This document shows positions 4,719-35,371 of a DNA stretch of 46,619 bases, piece after piece. The notes below the pieces were generated by a model, which was given only the letters and a program-made list of their open reading frames with translations, ran no database searches and was not told where the DNA came from. The position numbers and the translations under genes are program-made. Numbering within the stretch: position 1 is the stretch's first letter; each line of letters starts with the position of its first letter. Source of the DNA: Candidatus Bipolaricaulota bacterium (GTDB lineage: Bacteria > Bipolaricaulota > Bipolaricaulia > UBA7950 > UBA9294); NCBI GenBank assembly GCA_003979035.1, contig RXOA01000140.1:1-46619 (forward strand), given 5' to 3'.

Positions 4719-6026
4719 CTACAGGGCGCAGGATGCGTTCTCAACGGCAAGAACCGCGTCGTCCTCCTCCTGCTCAAGATATGAGAGGAGGGCATCCGTG
4801 ATCGCAGGGTCAAGATCTCTTCCCTTCATCTCACAGAGGATATCTTTCGCTCTGGCAGAGGAGAAAGCCTTTCGGTATGGACGATCGGTCACCAGCGCGT
4901 CATAGACGTCGGCGGCACAGATGATTCTTGAGATCAGTGGGATCGCCTCGCCGGAAAGTCCGCTCGGATAGCCCGTGCCGTCCCAGTGCTCATGCTCATG
5001 CCGAACAGCATCGGCGACCGACGCGTAGATCTCCAGACCTTCAATCAACTCGGCACTAATCACCGGGTGCCGTTTCATCTCGACCCATTCCTCGGGCGTC
5101 AGCGGGCCTGCCTTGAGGAGAATCGAATCAGGAACGGCAACTTTTCCGATATCGTGGACGCGGGCGGCAACATCGATGGATTCGATCTGGCGTTGGGAGA
5201 GGCCCATCGTTCGTCCGATGCAGACAGCTAGTTCGGCGACCGACGTCGAATGCACGGCCGTGTAGTGATCCCGCTCATCCAGCAATTTGGAGATGTTTTC
5301 GAACGTTTTCCGAGCTTCCGTTTGCAGTTTCACCCAACCACGAAACGAAACGTGCACCAGCGCCAATGGGAACAACGCAAGAAAGACATGCCAGACGGAG
5401 ATCATGTACAGAACCGTGAGAAGAAGAGCCGCGACGCACAACACAACATACTGAACCGTGAATTCTTTCAATCCTCGAAGAAACGTGTAGATAAACGGGC
5501 GCCTCTCCGTCAAGCTGATGATGCTCGTCACCAAAGCAAGGTTGGCGATCAAGTAGATGGAGAATGCCATCACGGCATACACGTAGTCGGCTCCGGATCC
5601 CAAGACGAGAAGCTCATGCCCGGTAAATCGAAGGACAAGCCCGGAGAGCGTTGCCGTGACAATGAGTTGGCCGACGTTGAACAGCACGGGGATGACGAAT
5701 CCCTCGATCCCATCGCTGCGGTTATCCCAGCGCAGAAGCATTTCCGTGAACAGATTCGTCAAGAAGACAAGCAAGACAGCAAGAGGCAATCCGAGGATAA
5801 AGAGCGCGGCCAGGTAGATGGCAATCGAACTTGAGATCTCCATCCGAAACGCCGGAACCCAAGTCGCATACACTTCTGCAAGTCCGCCAAGCACAAGGAA
5901 AATGACGAACAACACAATCTGAGAACTGGTGATCGGCTCCCAGGTCGCCATCGCATAGGCAAGGCAGATCCCCGCAAGAACAACGAGAGCCCCTACATAG
6001 AAGCGAATCCTCGTCGCCGTGTTCAT
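4719..6026 (-). CDS. membrane-anchored HD-GYP domain protein (probable c-di-GMP phosphodiesterase)
   Basis: 435 aa. N-terminal about 230 aa is multi-TM. The C-terminus carries HDIGKVAVPDSIL ... HHEHWDGTGYPSGL ... ICAADVYDALVTDRPYRKA, i.e. HD and GYP signatures. Confidence 0.85.
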   Translation of the reverse strand: MNTATRIRFYVGALVVLAGICLAYAMATWEPITSSQIVLFVIFLVLGGLAEVYATWVPAFRMEISSSIAIYLAALFILGLPLAVLLVFLTNLFTEMLLRWDNRSDGIEGFVIPVLFNVGQLIVTATLSGLVLRFTGHELLVLGSGADYVYAVMAFSIYLIANLALVTSIISLTERRPFIYTFLRGLKEFTVQYVVLCVAALLLTVLYMISVWHVFLALFPLALVHVSFRGWVKLQTEARKTFENISKLLDERDHYTAVHSTSVAELAVCIGRTMGLSQRQIESIDVAARVHDIGKVAVPDSILLKAGPLTPEEWVEMKRHPVISAELIEGLEIYASVADAVRHEHEHWDGTGYPSGLSGEAIPLISRIICAADVYDALVTDRPYRKAFSSARAKDILCEMKGRDLDPAITDALLSYLEQEEDDAVLAVENASCAL

Positions 6027-6206
6027 GTCAAATGAGATTCAGCCTCCGCTTCAACAGAGATGTATGTCACATCCTATCAGAAGAAGCACTTGTCTGCTAT
6101 GTGCCTGACAAGAAGAGGCCGGGAAGATGGATTTGGGGGAATCAGTTCACGCGAGCACACCAAGAAGTCTCGATTCGTGAATCAGGAGCACCACATCCCC
6201 GTACGA

Positions 6207-6356
6207 TTAGCTGGGGTGCCACTTGATGCTCGAGCCGAGCAGCAATCCGAGCGTCGCGATCAACATCAACGCGTACAGCGCCTTGCTCCGAAACAGCCGC
6301 CCGACCAACTTGTTCGTTCGTTCCCCTGCCCGTTCGTTGTATCCGCCCCACTTCAC
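6207..6356 (-). CDS. small tail-anchored membrane protein, 49 aa (paralog A)
   Basis: GTG 6356 is preceded by AAGGAGG at 6 nt spacing. Translation VKWGGYNERAGERTNKLVGRLFRSKALYALMLIATLGLLLGSSIKWHPS, stop TAA. Not in the ORF track because it is short and starts with GTG; read by hand from the minus strand. Confidence 0.6.
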   Translation of the reverse strand: MKWGGYNERAGERTNKLVGRLFRSKALYALMLIATLGLLLGSSIKWHPS

Positions 6357-6404
6357 TGTCCGCCTCCTTTGTGATTGCGGTTCTTTCGATTCTTCTTCCC
6401 GTTC

Positions 6405-6554
6405 CTAGCTGGGATGCCACTTGATGCTCGAGCCGAGCAGCAATCCGAGCGTCGCGATCAACATCAACGTGTACAGCGCCTTCCCTCGAATCATCCGATG
6501 GAGCATTCGCGCAAGCCGTTCGCTCGCACCAAGGTTGTATCCTCCCCACTTCAT
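6405..6554 (-). CDS. small tail-anchored membrane protein, 49 aa (paralog B)
   Basis: Internal ATG 6554 of ORF 6405..6668, preceded by GGAGGGG. Translation MKWGGYNLGASERLARMLHRMIRGKALYTLMLIATLGLLLGSSIKWHPS. Same length and same C-terminal 27 aa region as paralog A. Confidence 0.6.
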   Translation of the reverse strand: MKWGGYNLGASERLARMLHRMIRGKALYTLMLIATLGLLLGSSIKWHPS

Positions 6555-6648
6555 AGGCCCCTCCAGCTCATATAGACGATACTCTGATATGTTACCTCGC
6601 ACGTTTCCTGAGTATACGATAAATTGACGCAAAACAAACGACAGCACA

Positions 6649-6670
6649 CGGTGTTCTTCTTCGTACACCG
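6649..6670 (-). terminator. possible intrinsic terminator downstream of hup-1
   Basis: 6-bp stem CGGTGT/ACACCG with a 10-nt loop. On the minus strand it is followed by TGTGCTGTCGTTTGTTTTGCG (T-rich). Lies 93 nt after the HU stop. Confidence 0.35.
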
Positions 6671-6762
6671 CTGGGCTGTCTATCCAAGAGCCTGTTCTCT
6701 TGCGTCCTCTGTATTCCCCATACTCCGAGCTCAGCTCACAGCCAGCACAACCCAGATCGGGA

Positions 6763-7053
6763 TTACTTTACCCGCACCTTCTTAGCAACGATCTCTTTGA
6801 GGTTCTTGCCCGCCTTGAATGCAGGTACCGTCTTTGCTGGTACCGAAATTCGCTTCTGTGTCTGCGGATTGATGCGCTTCGAAGCCTTTCGGACGCGCGC
6901 CTCGAACTTGCCGAACCCGGTCAGAAGGACGTCTTCTTTCTTGCTCAGCGCCTGAGCGACAAGCTCCACAAATGCATCAACAGCCAACCTTGATTGCTTT
7001 CTTGTCAACCCCGACTTAGCAGAAAGCTTGTTCACGAATTCCCCTTTATTCAA
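6763..7053 (-). CDS. hup: HU family DNA-binding protein
   Basis: 96 aa. MNKGEFVNKLSAKSGLTRKQSRLAVDAFVELV..LTGFGKFEARVRKASKRINPQTQKRISVPAKTVPAFKAGKNLKE is the canonical HU/IHF fold signature. Confidence 0.9.
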   Translation of the reverse strand: MNKGEFVNKLSAKSGLTRKQSRLAVDAFVELVAQALSKKEDVLLTGFGKFEARVRKASKRINPQTQKRISVPAKTVPAFKAGKNLKEIVAKKVRVK

Positions 7054-7087
7054 TGTGTCACCCCCCTTCTTCTAGATAAGTTTGAGC

Positions 7088-7117
7088 ATTATAGAGGCGG
7101 TAGATTGAGCTTGTCAA
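7088..7117 (-). promoter_or_regulatory. consensus sigma70-type promoter for hup-1
   Basis: The minus strand reads TTGACA (7117-7112), an 18-nt spacer, then TATAAT (7093-7088), about 35 nt upstream of the HU start. Confidence 0.6.
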
Positions 7118-7208
7118 GTGATGAAGGGCATTACAGTGACTCGTTCCCCAACGGACAACAACCAGCCTCGATGAGCGTACTTACGATCCCTACGAGGTTC
7201 GAACCGGT

Positions 7209-7237
7209 TTGACTTCACATCGCCGCCAAGGTAAAGT
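7209..7237 (+). promoter_or_regulatory. putative promoter of the rpsF-ssb-rpsR operon
   Basis: TTGACT (7209-7214), a 17-nt spacer, then TAAAGT (7232-7237), about 25-35 nt upstream of the rpsF start. Confidence 0.4.
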
Positions 7238-7261
7238 TATTTCCCGCAACGATAAGGAGAG

Positions 7262-7552
7262 GTGCAAGCGTTGAGAGACTACGAAATTGTCTATGTTCTC
7301 AAGTCCGACCTTTCGGAAGAAGATCGAACAGCCAAGATTGCCCGGATCCATGCATTGATTACGGACAACGGCGGGGAGATCGGGAAAACGGAAGAGTGGG
7401 GGAAACGCGTGCTTGCCTATGAAATCAAGCACAACAAAGAGGGATACTACGGCCTCGCCGAATTCCAGTTGGAGCCGTCGGCCGTGGAACAGATCAAGGA
7501 TCGCTTGAACATCGACGAGCAGATCCTCCGATATCAGATCGTCTGCCCCTAA
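7262..7552 (+). CDS. rpsF: 30S ribosomal protein S6
   Basis: ..RDYEIVYVLKSDLSEEDRTAKIARIHALITDNGGEIGKTEEWGKRVLAYEIKHNKEGYYGLAEF. The true start may be TTG 7271 (MRDYEIVY..), 9 nt after AAGGAGAG. Confidence 0.9.
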   Translation: MQALRDYEIVYVLKSDLSEEDRTAKIARIHALITDNGGEIGKTEEWGKRVLAYEIKHNKEGYYGLAEFQLEPSAVEQIKDRLNIDEQILRYQIVCP

Positions 7553-7567
7553 AGCAAGCGAGGAAAA

Positions 7568-7981
7568 GTGTCTGCCAGTCTCAACAAAGTCTTATTGATC
7601 GGGAATCTGACTGCCGACCCTGAGCTGCAGTATACTTCCGGCGGAACAGCACGCACTCGATTCAGTATTGCCGTCAACCGGCAGTACAAAGATCGCGAGG
7701 GGCAATTGCAGGAAGACGTTACGTTTGTGCCGATCGTTGCCTGGGGATCCCAGGCTGAGAACTGTGCCAATTACTTGAGCAAAGGCCGATCCGTGGCCGT
7801 AGAAGGCCGTTTGCGGATCTACAAATTCGAGACTGATGACGGAGACAAGCGTTCCATCACCGAAGTGGTCGCCCAGAACGTGCAATTCCTCGGTGGCGCT
7901 CAACGTGAACGAGTCGAACCGGGAACCGTCAAGAAGACGGATACATCGGTCATCCCCGAGGATGAGGAGGTTCCTTTCTAG
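7568..7981 (+). CDS. ssb: single-stranded DNA-binding protein
   Basis: 137 aa. LNKVLLIGNLTADPELQYTSGGTARTRFSIAVNR..FVPIVAWGSQAENCANYLSKGRSVAVEGRL OB fold and an acidic tail ..IPEDEEVPF. Confidence 0.9.
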   Translation: MSASLNKVLLIGNLTADPELQYTSGGTARTRFSIAVNRQYKDREGQLQEDVTFVPIVAWGSQAENCANYLSKGRSVAVEGRLRIYKFETDDGDKRSITEVVAQNVQFLGGAQRERVEPGTVKKTDTSVIPEDEEVPF

Positions 7982-30029: not shown

Positions 30030-30287
30030 CGCCACCGTCAGCTGATTCCCCGCTTGACTCCATGCGCAGAACCCAACGAGCACTGACGCTCCGGCAAGTG
30101 ATCACACTTAGTCGCTCCCAAGAGAAGAAGGTAGTGCAACATCACCACCAGAATCGGGGGCTTGATGCCTACCCTCGGGATGAAGAGCGACAGGCAGGGC
30201 TGATTGAGCTGTAGCCAAGCTGGAGTCCTGCAACAGCCTCACTACGGCCCCTGCACACAAGGCTTATCGTATGCCACTTGACTTGAG

Positions 30288-31844
30288 CTAGCTTGACAGC
30301 TTCGCCGCAACGATCCGTCCGACGGTTGTAGCATGAAGCCCAAGATGTTCCGCAACATCACGTCTGGTATACCCGTGCCGCGTCACCGCAGCAACTATTG
30401 CGCTATCCCTCTCTGCTTTGGTTGTGGCTCTGAAGAAGATCCTGTGTAGAGTCATTGGTGCTTCGCTTAACAGGAAGGCATACTGCTGGTTCCGGCCGAA
30501 AAGCGCCTTTCGGCTCTCAAGTGGAACATGGATTTCCTCTAGCAGGCATGAGCGGATCAGTACCGAAAGGGCTTGACTCAGGAAGTACAAATCCTTCTCC
30601 TTCGCAGCGCTCCGCTTCAGGTGCTCTGAGTAGTGTGTGTAGTAGTTGCGTGACCCGACGACGTCCTTGATGAACTCATCCACGTCTCCGACGACCGGGG
30701 GAAGGCTTTCACCTGCAGAGGCCACCAGCTGTCGAAGGCGATCGCGGAGTGAGAACTCGTTCTGCCACCTGAATTCGCCTTTCAGCCAGGATCGCAGCCC
30801 ATATGGGCAAACGCCGAGGATCTCCTTGCGGCGCTTCCTGAACTCGGGTTTCGGAAGGCGCTCTCCGGGGAATCGCCGCCTATGGTACACCTCAGCAGCC
30901 TGAGCTAGCATGAGGAAGGCCCTGTCTACTCCAATGTTTTCCGAGTACAGAGAGTGTGTGGTTAGCGCGATCGTGTTCTCAAGATCAGAGAAACATTCCA
31001 TCCATTTAGAAAGGCTTGCAGAGAAGTGAGAAGCGATGTCCTGATACGTGAACAGCATCCTGTGTGGAGCAAGAACTCCAGGATCATCCACAGGTACCAA
31101 TCTCGTGCGGAAGTAGACCTCCAGGGGATTCGGTCGCTCAATACCATCCGAGAGTGTATACGTGGAAGAGCTGCTGTTGACGACCAGACTGAGCAAGGCG
31201 GTTGCTCGATCAGTGCCCAGGCTGACCAGTTTCTGAAGAGGTAGTACCACTTTCTGGTAGATCTCCTCGATGTCCATTGCCTCTTTGAGCTCAACGTTGA
31301 ACTCAGCATTTCGTGAGAGCTCAATCCTTTGCTTCGGATTCCCTGTGTAGCTGTGCGAGCAGACAAGTCTCACAGTTCCACAGGGGGTGTCTGCCGCAGC
31401 AATCGGAGAGGAGGCATCGCAGAGCGCCTCAATCCTGCTGCCTTCGCCAACCTTGCTCGCCCGATGAATCCTAATCGGCGGCACTCGTGCCCAGTCGACG
31501 AGAAACTGCAACATGACACGGACCCTGGAGAATTCTCGGCTATTCGGCGTGTCAAGATGCGCTCCGGAATAGGCAACATCAGGTCGGTATCTTTCCCTGA
31601 ATGGACCACCGGTAGTGAAAGAGAAACCGGCGCTCCGGGCACTCTCAAGCGTGATGCTTCCGTGACCTTCGACTGCCCCAAGAATGATGGGGATCTCGTC
31701 AGGTGCCTTCGATGGGGTATCCGAAAGAGAACCTACAAGCCTCAGCTCCAATCCTTCAGTCCGAGAGAAGCGAAGGACACCGGCGACAGCATTGGTTTCT
31801 TGATCTGGGAGCCACCACAGGCCCATCTGCTCGAATGACTTCAC
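30288..31844 (-). CDS. ApeA-like HEPN defence protein with extra C-terminal HTH
   Basis: 518 aa. N-terminus GLWWLPDQETNAVAGVLRFSRTEGLELRLVG (ApeA N-terminal-domain style). HEPN Rx4H motif in VVGSRNYYTHYSEH. C-terminal AERDSAIVAAVTRHGYTRRDVAEHLGLHATTVGRIV resembles a DnaA-C/transposase-associated HTH. GTG 31844 follows GAGAGG. Confidence 0.65.
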   Translation of the reverse strand: MKSFEQMGLWWLPDQETNAVAGVLRFSRTEGLELRLVGSLSDTPSKAPDEIPIILGAVEGHGSITLESARSAGFSFTTGGPFRERYRPDVAYSGAHLDTPNSREFSRVRVMLQFLVDWARVPPIRIHRASKVGEGSRIEALCDASSPIAAADTPCGTVRLVCSHSYTGNPKQRIELSRNAEFNVELKEAMDIEEIYQKVVLPLQKLVSLGTDRATALLSLVVNSSSSTYTLSDGIERPNPLEVYFRTRLVPVDDPGVLAPHRMLFTYQDIASHFSASLSKWMECFSDLENTIALTTHSLYSENIGVDRAFLMLAQAAEVYHRRRFPGERLPKPEFRKRRKEILGVCPYGLRSWLKGEFRWQNEFSLRDRLRQLVASAGESLPPVVGDVDEFIKDVVGSRNYYTHYSEHLKRSAAKEKDLYFLSQALSVLIRSCLLEEIHVPLESRKALFGRNQQYAFLLSEAPMTLHRIFFRATTKAERDSAIVAAVTRHGYTRRDVAEHLGLHATTVGRIVAAKLSS

Positions 31845-31907
31845 GTTAGCCTCTCGAATCTACGCTTACGCGTTCCGTCGATACCCACATCTCACTCCTT
31901 ATATCGT

Positions 31908-31924
31908 ATCATGAATATCATGAT
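31908..31924. promoter_or_regulatory. perfect palindrome upstream of the ApeA-like gene (candidate operator)
   Basis: ATCATGA-ATA-TCATGAT, 64-80 nt upstream of the start, in a 43% GC spacer. Confidence 0.35.
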
Positions 31925-31990
31925 CAGATAAGGCAAGAGATCCGCCAGCGGTGTATGTCACCTATACATGAGATTGTCACAGGCCATGCA

Positions 31991-32392
31991 TCAATCTCTT
32001 GGGTGGAAGCTGCTTATGCACCTAAGCTGACGAAGAGCTGCGGCCATCTCTTCGTCACAGACGTGGTTGTAGATCGTTGTTGTCGATTTATCAGCATGCC
32101 CTAGCGCGTCCTGCACAAGGCGGATGTTTCGGCTTTCACGGAGAAAGTCGGCCGCAACCGTATGTCGGAGGGGGTGAGGGTGGACGTTCTTCATGATGCC
32201 TGCCTTGCGCGAGTGTCGCTTCGCCATTTGCTGGACATGGCATCTGGAAACAGCTCTCCCCGCGCGAGTTGTGAAGATATGAGTTGACAGGTGCTGCCAG
32301 AGTGATTGAGAGCACTGATCGAACAAGCAGAGACAAACGTCTGGGGCAATGGCGCAGGATCGCAACCGAGAGGCGACCTTGCTATTGCGCAA
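31991..32392 (-). pseudogene. tyrosine recombinase/integrase remnant (C-terminal catalytic part only)
   Basis: Retains HPHPLRHTVAADFL (H-x-x-R box) and LGHADKSTTTIYNHV (the catalytic Tyr region). The N-terminal about 200 aa, including the first Arg box, is absent. The upstream frame is closed and the next gene begins at 32615. Confidence 0.7.
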
Positions 32393-32614
32393 AATTGCAG
32401 CCAGGAGGCGATCCTGCTATCCCCCGCCGCTACGGGAACCATGAAATCGTTCGGCTGGTGAAGCCTGGGCAAGCAACTGGAGGTCTCTTGCTCTGACGTA
32501 TACCTGAGCCTAAAGTGGCCTTCCTAAGGATCTCCACTGCTTCGGCTTCTCGGAGCCACGTCTCAAGCGGGAGCCCCAACGGTGTACATGTGGAACACTA
32601 CGATGATTCTCGGC

Positions 32615-33757
32615 TCAAGTCCGCAAATCCCAATGGCTTGGTTTTCCATCTTTCGAGTCGTTCTGCGTTGGAGGCAGCGATACTCTACCCGTACGCATTA
32701 CTGTGTAGATAGCTTCAGTAACTACGTTATAGATGGTCTCACGAACTAGCGGATCTGCAGTCCGCAGCTCATGGACTACATCTTCGGAGGACAGGAATTC
32801 CCTGATGCCGAAGGTCGGGCCACGCACTTCCAGTTTGGCCCCCCTTCCGAATACTAGGTACTTCAAGGCGTAGAGAGCGGCACCTTCGCTTCCTCCCCTC
32901 TCCAAGCTAAGCTCCACCTTTCGCCTTACCTCTTCTTTGCTGTCCGCCGCAGTGAAACTCCCTTCGCTGTCCAGCACGTCCGTGTCGGCGCCAGTTAGGC
33001 TATGTGCAGTTGGTATGTACAGGTTCGTTAAGCGAAACTCCTTCTTCATACCGATGTACTCATGATAGGCATGCCATATTGCCCGTTCATCATAGCCAGA
33101 CAGTGTGAAACCGTACTTGCTGCTCGTACGAGACAGGTACACCATGTTCAGGAATGGTCTGATATACCGAACAAACGGAGACATCTCTACCAGATGGTGC
33201 TTGTAGGATGCGATTTCGTCAACGCTGCCCTTGGAGAGCGCACTGAAATACCCTAGCAGGCTTCCGAGAAGCGCATTCCCCCGGATTCTGGAGTTCAGGA
33301 GTCTACTCTCGTAGACGACCCTGTGCTGCACTCTCGACATACCTTGCCGCCGAAGGGCATCCACGAACAGCTTTGCGTCACGTAGGGCAGCTGCTTCGTC
33401 CCGGCCAGTGATCGCACCGTAGTATCTATCAAACACCAGGAGCCGGACACTCAAGCCTGCCCGAGTCAGGTCTTCCAGGTAGCGAAGGAAGGTAGCATGT
33501 ACCAAGTTGGGAGAATCCGCAGGCGTAACCGGCCAGTAAATGAATCGCTGACGGCGCATCATCGCTGGGTTGTCGAGCAACTCAGCATGTTCAAGCACTA
33601 GACCAGCCTCAACTAGATCGCGCACAAGAGACACATTTACCCCACCCTTCGTATGGGATATGAACCAGGCCTTCATCTGCTGTGGTGATCTATACCGCCA
33701 AAAAAGCCAAGCCATGATGAGAGTGACAACTGACAGGACTATCGTCAGAATCTCCAA
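32615..33757 (-). CDS. membrane-anchored protein with degenerate class-Ic aaRS (TyrRS/TrpRS)-like domain; function unknown
   Basis: Start reassigned to TTG 33757, 5 nt after GGAGGA, overlapping the radical-SAM stop by 13 nt. N-terminal TM EILTIVLSVVTLIMAWLFW. WPVTPADSPNLVHATF, AGLSVRLLVFDRYYGAITG and LTGADTDVLDSEGS occur in the order of the TyrRS HIGH / GDP / KMSKS regions, but the signatures are lost. Confidence 0.55.
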   Translation of the reverse strand: MEILTIVLSVVTLIMAWLFWRYRSPQQMKAWFISHTKGGVNVSLVRDLVEAGLVLEHAELLDNPAMMRRQRFIYWPVTPADSPNLVHATFLRYLEDLTRAGLSVRLLVFDRYYGAITGRDEAAALRDAKLFVDALRRQGMSRVQHRVVYESRLLNSRIRGNALLGSLLGYFSALSKGSVDEIASYKHHLVEMSPFVRYIRPFLNMVYLSRTSSKYGFTLSGYDERAIWHAYHEYIGMKKEFRLTNLYIPTAHSLTGADTDVLDSEGSFTAADSKEEVRRKVELSLERGGSEGAALYALKYLVFGRGAKLEVRGPTFGIREFLSSEDVVHELRTADPLVRETIYNVVTEAIYTVMRTGRVSLPPTQNDSKDGKPSHWDLRT

Positions 33758-34809
33758 TCGTATCCTCCAACGCTCTGATTGCGCCGCGCCACAAACAGCT
33801 GTGCCCACTCTGGACGGAGCGGGAACAGCCCCTGAAGTCCGCCGAGTATCTCGCGCACAGCTTCAGCGTCCCGCGTTCTTACATAGGGTAGCACGTTCCC
33901 TCTGGAAGCAGCTCCAGCTCGGCAAGCTGACATAGTACCGTCCGGAGAAATCCGGACATGGCAGAAGCCCTCCGAGCAGTATGAGCGCATTCCGCAATCA
34001 CGGCAAACCCCAGCAGTTGGGACTTGACCGAAGTCCCTCAGGATCAGCCGCGTGCTGTCCCCTTCGTAGAGGGTATTCGGGTGGCTGAACGGGCGCCGGT
34101 AGTTGCTCGGTCGCAGACCAAGCGCCCGCACGGATGCTCTGAACTGGTTGAGAGCGTCACATGTCTCCGCTGCCTCGGCGGGCACTCTCGGTATGAAGTG
34201 AAGAAATTCAGGTACGAAACCATACGTGTTGCAGAAATCGACGATCTCGCGGATCGCCGACATCGACGTAGTCAGCTCAGGCAACAACACAGTGTTCGTG
34301 TGAACTTCAATCTGAGACTTCGACAAGAGATCCGCATTCGCTAGAAGCACGCGTCGAGGCATATTGACGCCCGTGATCATTTTGTATGCGTGGGGGTTCA
34401 AAGAGTTGATTGAAAGGTTGATCCGTGCTATTGCATGGAATGCAGAGTGAAGAGGGAAGAGGGTCATGGAGGAATTTGTCGTCAGATGGACTTTCTTGCC
34501 TGTCGTAGTCCAGATCTGGAGGCACAGGCTTGCGAGGTCCGGGTAGAGCAACGGTTCTCCCCCAGCAATCGCGAAACCCTCCAGAAGAGGAAGTCCAGCA
34601 TCCGCAACGAATAGAAAGTCCTCAAGGTTCATCTCCTGCTGTGCGTCAGGAGACATGCCTTCGCTATGGCAGTATGTGCAGGAGTAGTTGCAGGAGGAAG
34701 TGACCAAGATACGAAGGATCTGCGTAATCGCCGCATTCGCATGCCGATCTGCAGAGCTGGCTGGATCAGGAAGCGACTCTTCACTCTGATGCTTTAAATG
34801 TTCCATCAT
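33745..34809 (-). CDS. radical SAM enzyme, MoaA-like architecture
   Basis: 354 aa. LRILVTSSCNYSCTYCHSEG (CxxxCxxC), GGEPLLYPDL, TTNS, and a C-terminal second Cys cluster CRDCGMRSYCSEGFCHVRISPDG, analogous to the MoaA auxiliary-cluster region. Confidence 0.75.
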   Translation of the reverse strand: MMEHLKHQSEESLPDPASSADRHANAAITQILRILVTSSCNYSCTYCHSEGMSPDAQQEMNLEDFLFVADAGLPLLEGFAIAGGEPLLYPDLASLCLQIWTTTGKKVHLTTNSSMTLFPLHSAFHAIARINLSINSLNPHAYKMITGVNMPRRVLLANADLLSKSQIEVHTNTVLLPELTTSMSAIREIVDFCNTYGFVPEFLHFIPRVPAEAAETCDALNQFRASVRALGLRPSNYRRPFSHPNTLYEGDSTRLILRDFGQVPTAGVCRDCGMRSYCSEGFCHVRISPDGTMSACRAGAASRGNVLPYVRTRDAEAVREILGGLQGLFPLRPEWAQLFVARRNQSVGGYDWRF

Positions 34810-34860
34810 TCCCTACCTTCAAACAGACTATTATACTGCGGAATTCCAGTGGCCCAAACC

Positions 34861-34933
34861 GGAGGTAATCGGATTCGAACCCGCACCCTCTCGCGTGTAA
34901 GGCAGGCGCTCTCCCGACTAGAGCTACATCGCC
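34861..34933 (-). pseudogene. decayed/chimeric tRNA copy (anticodon position reads UAC)
   Basis: The D arm and most of the anticodon arm fold. The T stem (GCGGG vs CCGAT) and acceptor stem (GGCGATG vs TACCTCC) cannot pair, and there is no CCA. About 85% identical to tRNA-Ala at 35243-35319. Confidence 0.7.
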
Positions 34934-35002
34934 AATGTCTGGGTCAAAGCGCTGGAGGTTATGGTGTTCTGTGGCGCGAAGACGGCTCACACGGATCTCG
35001 GG

Positions 35003-35242: not shown

Positions 35243-35319
35243 TGGTGGAGGTGATCGGATTCGAACCGACAGCCTCCCGCGTGCAAGGCGGGCGCTCTCC
35301 CGATTAGAGCTACACCCCC
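35243..35319 (-). tRNA. tRNA-Ala (UGC)
   Basis: Acceptor GGGGGTG/CACCTCC with the G3:U70 identity pair, anticodon arm CCCGC-CTTGCAC-GCGGG, T arm GTCGG-TTCGAAT-CCGAT, encoded CCA. Confidence 0.9.
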
Positions 35320-35343
35320 AATGTTTGGGTCAAAGCGTTGGAG

Positions 35344-35371
35344 ATTATAGCGTTCTGTGGCGCTCAGGCAA
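35344..35371 (-). promoter_or_regulatory. putative tRNA-Ala promoter
   Basis: The minus strand reads TTGCCT (35371-35366), a 16-nt spacer, then TATAAT (35349-35344), 24 nt upstream of the mature 5' end. Confidence 0.5.

Follow-up and report, generated by a model that had tools for sequence, protein, structure and literature searches.

Several described enzymes and immune systems combine features that recur in the locus analyzed here. Cyclodipeptide synthases (CDPSs) are derived from class Ic aminoacyl-tRNA synthetases (aaRSs), are structurally closest to archaeal tyrosyl-tRNA synthetase (TyrRS) and have lost the ATP-binding motif (PMC4159871). Cam1 (PMC10808066) and Csx23 (PMC11014256) are effectors with an N-terminal transmembrane (TM) region and a cytosolic ligand-binding domain. 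HXS (PMC13128918) and Ophion (bioRxiv 10.1101/2025.09.30.679545) are multi-gene anti-phage systems organized around a radical S-adenosylmethionine (radical-SAM) enzyme. The stretch under study, referred to as the window, comprises 46,619 nt (positions 1 to 46,619, forward strand) of contig RXOA01000140.1 from a Candidatus Bipolaricaulota bacterium (GCA_003979035.1). It contains a small cassette (2.2 kb) of two overlapping genes encoding a MoaA-like radical-SAM enzyme and a putatively membrane-anchored protein with a TyrRS-derived domain (the partner). Judged by sequence comparison, this pair is a member of a rare, horizontally mobile and undescribed cassette family, the invariant core of which consists of a radical-SAM enzyme and a pseudo-TyrRS.

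The pair matches no described system and is rated as new as a gene system. No library model exists for the partner, and full-text literature searches, complemented by term look-ups in articles covering conflict systems, effectors of type III CRISPR and radical-SAM-based defence, yielded neither a TyrRS-like/radical-SAM pair nor a TyrRS-derived domain in defence. This agrees with the first-pass annotation of this DNA, in which the pair had not been recognized as any named system. Among the systems compared, HXS and Ophion share the organization around a radical-SAM enzyme, but HXS employs an HxS-repeat effector and Ophion a PHP protein plus a phosphoribosyltransferase (PRTase), and neither contains an aaRS-like protein; moreover, the HxsB/HxsC models reach only 21–25 bits on the window enzyme. 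Cam1, Csx23 and the TM effectors of Pycsar and CBASS resemble the partner in joining a predicted TM helix to a cytosolic domain, the domain family also occurring with other outputs. However, the partner fold is TyrRS-derived rather than of the CARF, SAVED or cyclic nucleotide (cNMP)-binding type, ligand binding is hypothetical in its case, and the operon neighbour is here a radical-SAM enzyme instead of a cyclase, a CD-NTase or Cas10. Prokaryotic viperins (pVips) are likewise radical-SAM enzymes of defence islands, and the enzymes of certain sister cassettes (clade B, see below) weakly match viperin models. In contrast to the window enzyme, viperins have no auxiliary cysteine block, and pVips occur without an aaRS-like partner. 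CDPSs, finally, are soluble and comprise the catalytic domain only, whereas the partner keeps a C-terminal domain, has gained a predicted membrane helix, differs in its invariant residues and is associated with radical-SAM enzymes rather than with the usual CDPS tailoring enzymes. An assignment of the partner as a CDPS was rejected because of this different architecture and because no CDPS model of Pfam matched at E values up to 1.

The radical-SAM enzyme and its TyrRS-derived partner

Both genes are encoded on the minus strand, with the radical-SAM gene upstream, and display the following features:

33745..34809 (−), radical-SAM gene, 354 aa (list of open reading frames (ORFs); Pfam Radical_SAM, E 1e-16)
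34669..34692 (−), CX3CX2C cluster motif CNYSCTYC, residues 40–47, invariant in both radical-SAM clades
33922..34005 (−), C-terminal Cys-rich block CRDCGMRSYCSEGFCHVRISPDGTMSAC, residues 269–296, probable auxiliary Fe-S site
32615..33757 (−), partner gene, 380 aa from TTG; N-terminal hydrophobic helix and TyrRS-derived domain without ATP-activating motifs
33745..33768 (−), coupling junction: GGAGGA at 33768–33763, 5-nt spacer, TTG at 33757–33755, radical-SAM stop TGA at 33747–33745; overlap of 13 nt
33698..33754 (−), N-terminal hydrophobic helix EILTIVLSVVTLIMAWLFW, residues 2–20, predicted membrane anchor; Kyte-Doolittle mean of 2.27 over 19 residues
33488..33535 (−), relic of the HIGH region WPVTPADSPNLVHATF, residues 75–90, with N-L-V-H replacing H-I-G-H in alignments with human and M. 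jannaschii TyrRS
33074..33112 (−), GFTLSGYDERAIW, residues 216–228, counterpart of the TyrRS ribose/amino-group motif GG-x-(D/E)-Q
32957..32998 (−), LTGADTDVLDSEGS at the KMSKS position, residues 254–267, without lysine

Both reading frames are intact; assembly of read set SRR13394437 gave an identical copy. The radical-SAM protein carries only the label "radical SAM protein" at NCBI (MBN1859481.1). The junction was found as proposed in the first-pass annotation, i.e., with a TTG start 5 nt after GGAGGA and a 13-nt overlap with the radical-SAM stop. The in-frame GTG at 33808 was rejected as the partner start in favour of TTG at 33757, since homologues begin 0–16 residues ahead of the same hydrophobic helix; in another assembly, automatic annotation placed the start at Met45, so that the helix was missed. 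Scans for promoters and terminators around the pair performed no better than on shuffled sequence.

Three elements noted previously in the radical-SAM enzyme, the CNYSCTYC cluster, GGEPLL (residues 83–88, by direct reading of the sequence) and a second, C-terminal Cys cluster, are all present at their respective residues. The same annotation had equated this layout with that of MoaA (GTP 3′,8-cyclase), and a MoaA-like layout is confirmed. MoaA is the closest relative by sequence and fold: MoaA models are the best-scoring named ones (TIGR02666, 80.6 bits; TIGR02668, 95.5 bits; NF001199, 86.1 bits), MoaA of S. aureus is the best PDB match by sequence, and for the AlphaFold model of the window enzyme, which is of modest quality (pLDDT 68), Foldseek ranks S. 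aureus MoaA (1tv7) first (E 3.6e-11, TM-score 0.63–0.68). Both proteins share the N-terminal CX3CX2C motif and a Cys-rich β-hairpin region at the C-terminus, where CRDCGMRSYCSEGFCHVRISPDGTMSAC aligns with the C261...C278 region of S. aureus MoaA. Furthermore, R33 and R286, both invariant, align with MoaA Arg17 and Arg268, i.e., two of the three arginines exchanged in the Arg17/266/268 triple mutant of MoaA (PDB 2fb2).

There are also differences from MoaA. The above scores stay 2.5- to 3.5-fold under the curated equivalog cut-offs (284, 325 and 231 bits, respectively). The invariant Cys spacing is CX2CX5C(X4C)...C in the window enzyme as compared to CX2CX13C in MoaA; only C278 and C296 of the five cysteines in the block align with MoaA C261 and C278, residues 262–282 being modelled at pLDDT <50. 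C269, C272, C278 and C296 as well as H284 and R286 are invariant among three clade-A sequences (the family of the window enzyme), the invariant His284 occupying the position of MoaA Arg266. In addition, the basic segment preceding GGEP is lost, K-K-I-R of S. aureus MoaA being replaced by E-G-F-A. A full-length match to viperin is also lacking, as NCBIfam viperin_w_prok scores 44 bits (cut-off 180) over residues 36–151 and PADLOC pVip 55 bits over residues 35–174 only. Since the MoaA scores remain below cut-off and the viperin match is limited to the generic radical-SAM core, the window enzyme is neither MoaA nor viperin by curated tests, and both were dismissed as bona fide assignments. The conversion of NTPs into chain terminators, suggested in the first-pass annotation by analogy with prokaryotic viperins, finds no support in this core-only match. 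Further structural neighbours include nucleotide- or nucleoside-converting enzymes (AbmM, viperin and BlsE, within the best 12 matches) on the one hand, and peptide maturases (SuiB, SkfB, EpeE, anSME) on the other.

Involvement in molybdenum cofactor (Moco) synthesis is not indicated by the genomic context either. In agreement with the first-pass annotation, tblastn of the window with MoaC, MoaD, MoaE and MogA (E. coli queries) retrieved no homologues at E <0.1. Beyond the window, none of 12 loci contains Moco genes according to precomputed Pfam lists; thus, moaB/C/D/E, mog and moeA never accompany the radical-SAM gene of the cassette in the loci examined, and an embedding of related loci in molybdopterin operons, which would have spoken against the earlier proposal, was not observed.

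The partner possesses the complete fold of an archaeal/eukaryotic-type TyrRS, composed of Rossmann domain, CP1 and C-terminal domain. Three approaches agree on this point and on the TyrRS order of motifs that had been read from the soluble part at the outset. A profile of six homologues retrieves human, A. fulgidus and N. equitans TyrRS from the PDB (E 9e-8 to 8e-3), with the best-scoring stretch against the human enzyme extending from the GxDQ motif through the C-terminus. The hhalign comparison of a 40-sequence profile with M. jannaschii TyrRS yields 93 % probability over 260 columns, covering TyrRS residues 30–300. Finally, all of the 50 Foldseek matches listed for the AlphaFold model (pLDDT 70.7, pTM 0.69) are TyrRS chains (best E 1.7e-12, TM-score 0.5–0.68), so that the aaRS-like fold anticipated from the motifs is borne out by the model. 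By contrast, no model of Pfam, NCBIfam, PADLOC or PHROG matches the partner; Pfam tRNA-synt_1b fails even at E values up to 1, whereas genuine TyrRSs from the same search (P0077, P0061) match it at 7e-37 and 3e-78.

While whole-chain fold and motif order connect the partner to TyrRS, its N-terminal membrane helix and its location on mobile islands beside a radical-SAM gene set it apart, as do the exchanges in the active-site motifs (HIGH to N-x-x-H, KMSKS to T-x-V-L-D, GG-x-D-Q to SG-x-D-E). The first-pass annotation had considered both the HIGH and the KMSKS signature as lost, which applies to KMSKS but not entirely to HIGH. At the KMSKS position, LTGADTDVLDSEGS is aligned to LTGSKMSSSEEESK of human TyrRS and to KMSSS of M. 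jannaschii TyrRS, and the lysine-free T-D-V-L-D of the window partner corresponds to the family consensus G-x-x-T-x-V-L-D. The HIGH region, represented by WPVTPADSPNLVH in the human and M. jannaschii alignments, reads N-(L/I)-(V/I)-H in the family (H-L-G-H in real TyrRS). The last His of HIGH is retained as H87, which along with P76 and P79 is invariant across 40 family sequences. Further replacements concern TyrRS A-D-L-H (F-D-x-Y in the family, with D110 and Y112 invariant), Gln155 of M. jannaschii (invariant N204) and GG-M-E-Q/GG-I-D-Q of the M. jannaschii/human enzymes (SG-x-D-E-x3-W), where G221, D223 and W228 show no variation and E224 almost none, D223 being the counterpart of the acidic residue in GG-x-(D/E)-Q. 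The tyrosine-hydroxyl binder Asp158 of M. jannaschii falls into an alignment gap. Because the ATP-activating motifs are replaced, the partner should be unable to activate an amino acid with ATP. The protein is not decayed; its pocket has a set of invariant residues of its own (N-x-x-H, FD-x-Y, N204, G-x-D-E-x3-W).

The single N-terminal TM helix predicted earlier is in line with the hydropathy value given above and is modelled as a helix; together with the same flanking layout it occurs in about 33 of 40 family members. Due to the positively charged flank following the helix, the TyrRS-like domain is predicted to be cytoplasmic. In the majority of members, a basic pI (8.4–9.5) is calculated for the soluble part, and the C-terminal domain is the least conserved region of the family.

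Conservation of the pair, cassette variants and the wider domain family

The partner family is rare. Word-indexed searches gave 3–7 relatives each, e.g., six partner relatives in 5.8 billion clusters, and an exhaustive hidden Markov model (HMM) search of 1.84 billion representatives gave 40 relatives at E <1e-30 and 88 at E <1e-3. The sole family member among the GTDB species representatives (185,579 genomes; two pattern sets) is a locus in a Clostridia metagenome-assembled genome (MAG). IMG/VR viral contigs contain no partner relative, and tblastn queries with the window protein, with P0045 and with the TyrRS-like portion of one cyclase fusion found no match among PLSDB plasmids and INPHARED phages.

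An adjacent radical-SAM gene is present, either upstream or downstream, in 11 of 12 independent partner loci, a count that takes in truncated contigs with a radical-SAM fragment detected by tblastn at the contig edge. The junctions are tight and often overlapping (14-nt overlap in L003, 1-nt overlap in L005, 1-nt gap in L016, besides the 13-nt overlap in the window), and the pairing persists while the identity of the partners to the window protein drops to ~20 %. These findings support the prediction that the two genes form a conserved functional pair; the conservation as neighbours on which the earlier proposal depended is thereby established for these loci. The G+C content of the loci ranges from 25 % to 60 %, pointing to a broad taxonomic spread and horizontal transfer.

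The radical-SAM enzymes of the cassettes fall into two clades. Clade A (window, L005, L010, L011) is MoaA-like and possesses the Cys block, whereas clade B (L001, L003, L004, L012, L013–L015, L016) is extended by ~70 aa at the N-terminus and devoid of C-terminal cysteines. Profile–profile alignment of the two is limited to the radical-SAM core, indicating non-orthologous families, and no curated equivalog covers either of them. Clade B has its best PDB matches by sequence in SkfB (E 6e-18) and SuiB, part of its N-terminal extension can be aligned with the region ahead of the core in SuiB and CteB, and viperin models match weakly but over nearly the full length (PADLOC pVip, 81 bits for L012; NCBIfam, 52–72 bits). 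Partners with 35–39 % identity to the window protein pair with clade A or clade B alike.

The window represents the minimal two-gene form of the cassette. Four-gene versions additionally encode a SerB-like HAD phosphatase (90 bits) and a TagD/RfaE-II-like cytidylyl/adenylyltransferase. In L003 (2301–2843) and L016 (3709–4476), the clade-B radical-SAM gene is followed by a conserved third gene (39 % mutual identity), for the product of which (255 aa) no PDB match was obtained; a G-[NS]-S...D-x-D motif of pol-beta nucleotidyltransferases was recognized by eye, and Pfam Polbeta matches weakly (E 0.03). None of the cassettes contains a transporter, regulator or resistance gene. L013 harbours a Metallophos protein (1684–2883; 399 aa, with N-terminal signal-like segment and C-terminal TM segment) directly upstream of its four-gene cassette, which may be relevant, since Metallophos is fused to a TyrRS-like domain in P0088 (see below). 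A clade-A homologue (P0009, 33 % identity to the window enzyme) without pseudo-TyrRS partner is encoded in L006 (282–3508); the genes that follow specify a pentapeptide-repeat protein of 342 aa and a 375-aa product of unknown family.

Beyond the close family, which itself includes an HTH_3 fusion and a 719-aa form with C-terminal extension, weaker profile matches (E 1e-21 to 1e-4) have the signature WPVVP-x6-(I/L)IH ... [SAC]G-x-DE-x3-[WYF] in common; the signature WPVVP...GxDE-x3-W is absent from genuine TyrRS. Besides proteins with 2–3 TM segments, its carriers comprise roughly ten proteins fused to class III nucleotide cyclases, a protein of three domains, namely a cyclase-like region, the TyrRS-like domain and a TIR domain (189 bits to PDC-S66, 120 bits to ThsB), and a Metallophos fusion (P0088), the N-terminal part of which matches the enzymatic part of the CBASS "Effector endonuclease" model with 79 bits. 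The cyclase, cyclase plus TIR and Metallophos fusions are represented by P0067, P0070, P0072, P0079, P0085, P0086, P0088–P0091 and P0094. The gene for P0088 is located on a 2.2-kb contig (L018) carrying no neighbouring genes. The N-terminal domain of P0037 appears TIR-like by eye, with no support from Pfam or PDB and only a weak PADLOC match to Csx1/Csm6. Such a fusion pattern is reminiscent of signalling-defence sensor domains, in which one ligand-binding module is combined with interchangeable outputs. Overall, the TyrRS-derived domain appears to be a component of predicted immune proteins that lacks an annotation.

Genomic setting

The pair is situated between the following elements of the window:

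34860..34977 (−), degenerate copy of tRNA-Ala plus upstream flank ("tRNA scar"), marking the island boundary; Rfam tRNA 25.5 bits, below the gathering score
35243..35319 (−), intact tRNA-Ala(TGC), by ARAGORN; Rfam 62.8 bits
31991..32392 (−), C-terminal fragment of a tyrosine recombinase (integrase remnant), 133 aa, matching positions 90–171 of the 172 of the Pfam Phage_integrase profile only
30288..31844 (−), gene for an ApeA-NTD + HEPN protein with C-terminal helix-turn-helix (HTH); Pfam ApeA_NTD1 7.6e-39, HEPN_Apea 4.4e-29, PADLOC PDC-S58 1.1e-87

The low-GC island between tRNA scar and integrase remnant described in the first-pass annotation is apparent from a G+C content of 54.4 % across 30100–34860 versus 59.7 % in the remainder of the window, from the degenerate tRNA copy, and from the integrase fragment, which XerC/XerD models also match by their C-terminal third only. 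The scar is part of a direct repeat of 117 nt (34861–34977 versus 35247–35363, 87 % identity), and the intact tRNA-Ala is the probable integration target of the island. This repeat spans the whole tRNA-Ala and ~44 nt of upstream flank, while a usual att site corresponds to the 3′ half-site only. The start of the ApeA/HEPN gene lies 771 nt downstream of the partner stop, matching the distance of 770 nt reported before. Its product (293 bits to PADLOC PDC-S58) contains an extra C-terminal HTH at residues 478–513 with weak matches to HTH_Tnp_ISL3 and HTH_23. As an ApeA gene is absent from every other locus bearing the pair, it is regarded as a separate single-gene candidate defence system and not as a component of the pair.

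Three long contexts (window, L001, L012) allowed the neighbourhood to be judged, and all three are rich in defence or mobile-element genes. To the ApeA/PDC-S58 gene, integrase remnant and tRNA site of the window, L001 adds PDC-M33A (742 bits), a type II methyltransferase and AbiEi. L012 (identical to L017; positions 1–20172, Clostridia MAG GCA_045590215.1) carries a four-gene cassette within an integrative and conjugative element (ICE). On one flank of this cassette, a 2611-aa SNF2-LPD28 protein, NikA/MobC and a relaxase are encoded, on the other an FRG-domain protein (weak PDC-S15 matches) and a cluster of methyltransferase (MTase), restriction endonuclease (REase)-like HATPase and HNH genes.

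Apart from the island, a low-GC stretch (52–54 %) of ~1.5 kb at 6000–7600 of the window contains neither an ORF of at least 150 aa nor an Rfam match at the gathering threshold. The adjoining gene (4719–6026) encodes a membrane protein that resembles the HD-GYP type by eye.

Possible functions of the pair

The biological role of the pair is inferred entirely from sequence, fold and context. As a possible interpretation, preferred only tentatively, the cassette may constitute a conflict module in which the radical-SAM enzyme makes a nucleotide-like ligand that is sensed by the former Tyr-AMP pocket of a membrane-anchored effector. The MoaA-like enzyme would use its radical-SAM cluster and the C-terminal auxiliary cluster to convert a GTP-like purine nucleotide to a modified nucleotide; in other versions of the cassette, the cytidylyltransferase-like or pol-beta-type nucleotidyltransferase and the SerB-like phosphatase might help to build a nucleotidyl-X compound. 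The pseudo-TyrRS, presumed unable to adenylate an amino acid, would bind the product in its Tyr-AMP pocket, and this binding would alter how the protein, anchored by its N-terminus, assembles at the membrane. By analogy with the nucleotide-gated effectors Cam1 and Csx23, which have a single TM segment, membrane damage or growth arrest could be the outcome. In favour of this view are the conserved pairing, the MoaA-like fold and the counterparts of MoaA Arg17 and Arg268 in clade A, the nucleotidyltransferases of other cassettes and the defence or mobile-element setting of the long contexts. The role of a sensor or effector, as suggested for the aaRS-like protein in the first-pass annotation, receives indirect support from the fusions of the domain to TIR, cyclase, phosphoesterase, HTH and multi-TM regions. 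That the TyrRS-derived domain would represent a new class of small-molecule sensors in prokaryotic immunity, with the radical-SAM enzyme acting as ligand synthase in the present case, is a bolder proposal and rather doubtful.

Several observations weigh against such a conflict module. In view of two non-orthologous radical-SAM families that pair with closely related partners, and of variable accessory enzymes, a single shared ligand is not the simplest expectation, and by sequence clade B is no less similar to the peptide maturases SkfB and SuiB than to viperin. To our knowledge, there is no precedent for a radical-SAM enzyme serving as signal synthase. The retained TyrRS C-terminal domain (anticodon-binding type) and the basic soluble part would fit with tRNA binding. 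The fusion proteins are only distantly related (E 1e-4 to 1e-7), 4 of the 40 family members have just 12–14 hydrophobic residues at the N-terminus, and one partner (L002, 4.2-kb contig) occurs without a radical-SAM gene. Finally, the neighbourhood was judged on a small sample of contexts.

Three alternatives retain the pair as a functional unit, the first two of which would each make different use of the preserved TyrRS features. The pseudo-TyrRS could bind tRNA, of the Tyr type or another, without aminoacylating it and present it to the radical-SAM enzyme for modification or inactivation, resulting in translational shut-down during a conflict; in the larger cassette versions, nucleotidyltransferases and phosphatase would then act on the RNA end. 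The full-length TyrRS architecture including the C-terminal domain, the similarity to human TyrRS being strongest from GxDQ to the C-terminus and the M. jannaschii alignment covering residues 30–300, the basic soluble part of most members and the restriction of losses to the ATP-activation motifs are all consistent with such a function, as is the pol-beta-type motif encoded by the third gene in L003 and L016. tRNA is a substrate of many radical-SAM enzymes, and its 3′ end is modified by pol-beta nucleotidyltransferase toxins such as MenT. On the other hand, SerB-like HADs and TagD/RfaE-II-like enzymes usually have small molecules as substrates, conservation within the partner family is lowest in the C-terminal domain, the membrane anchor would have no obvious role, and the fusions to cyclase, TIR and phosphoesterase suit a sensor better than an RNA-presenting subunit; a tRNA-directed activity is considered unlikely. 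Similarly improbable is a small-molecule biosynthetic cassette, possibly for chemical defence or an antibiotic, with the pseudo-TyrRS as catalyst rather than sensor: it might transfer the amino acid of an aminoacyl-tRNA, or X from nucleotidyl-X, onto the radical-SAM product, and the membrane anchor would place synthesis beside export or a lipid acceptor. Radical-SAM enzymes acting on cytidylylated small substrates exist, e.g., Fom3 of fosfomycin synthesis; AbmM and BlsE were retrieved as structural neighbours of the window enzyme, the partner pocket is strongly conserved as would be expected for an enzyme, and the four-gene version (HAD, cytidylyltransferase-like, radical-SAM, partner) reads as a short pathway. 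CDPSs provide the example of TyrRS-like enzymes functioning without ATP-binding motif (PMC4159871), which is explained by their use of pre-activated substrates. However, the Pfam scan of the partner revealed no CDPS or other enzyme family at E values up to 1, transporter, regulator and resistance genes are missing from the cassettes, and the window version consists of two genes only. Fusions to TIR, cyclase and HTH would moreover be atypical of biosynthetic enzymes, and the neighbourhoods are defence islands, not biosynthetic clusters. We know of no precedent for a radical-SAM-made immune ligand, for a tRNA-targeting radical-SAM defence or for an aaRS-derived biosynthetic enzyme of the cassette type.

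According to a third alternative, the radical-SAM enzyme would be a protein or peptide maturase acting on the pseudo-TyrRS itself or on an unannotated small peptide. The structural proximity of the window enzyme to SuiB, SkfB, EpeE and anSME would agree with this, as would the clade-B matches to SkfB (E 6e-18) and SuiB and the partial likeness of the extension to the SuiB/CteB pre-core region; the CX2CX5CX4C spacing of clade A resembles the SPASM/twitch signature. The occurrence of two unrelated radical-SAM families would be easier to explain with the partner as substrate, and a defence system matured by radical-SAM enzymes is known, HxsB/HxsC maturing the HXS defence effector (PMC13128918). 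Yet the stretch bounded by tRNA copy and integrase fragment contains no candidate precursor ORF, the loci share no conserved small ORF, clade B lacks auxiliary-cluster cysteines, clade A retains counterparts of the GTP-binding residues Arg17 and Arg268 of MoaA, and the accessory nucleotidyltransferase and phosphatase would be left without a role. Maturation is rated as quite unlikely. A very small chance only is assigned to the trivial explanation of an ordinary MoaA next to an unrelated gene, or of non-functional cargo in a decaying island. MoaA is indeed the best named match by sequence and fold, and the island is degraded, as evident from the integrase fragment and the degenerate tRNA copy, but equivalog scores of 80–95 bits versus cut-offs of 231–325, the E-G-F-A in place of K-K-I-R before GGEP and the lack of Moco genes (12 loci by Pfam lists, the window by tblastn) disagree with a regular MoaA. 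The intact ORFs, the identical copy from SRR13394437 and a pairing kept down to ~20 % identity disagree with decay.

If the pair is functional, as implied by its conservation, the partner would represent a new type of aaRS paralogue, which has lost the ATP motifs, is membrane-anchored and mobile, and is obligately partnered with radical-SAM chemistry. In this case, its TyrRS-derived domain would likely be a new building block of prokaryotic immune proteins not covered by Pfam, NCBIfam, PADLOC or PHROG. The findings raise the questions of which products are formed by the MoaA-like and the viperin/SkfB-like enzymes of the cassettes, and whether a former aminoacyl-adenylate pocket can serve as receptor. 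Should the domain act as a sensor as proposed above, the cassette would provide the first case of an immune pathway with a membrane effector gated by the product of a radical-SAM enzyme, rather than by that of a cyclase, a CD-NTase or a TIR domain, and with a receptor recruited from an aminoacyl-tRNA synthetase.

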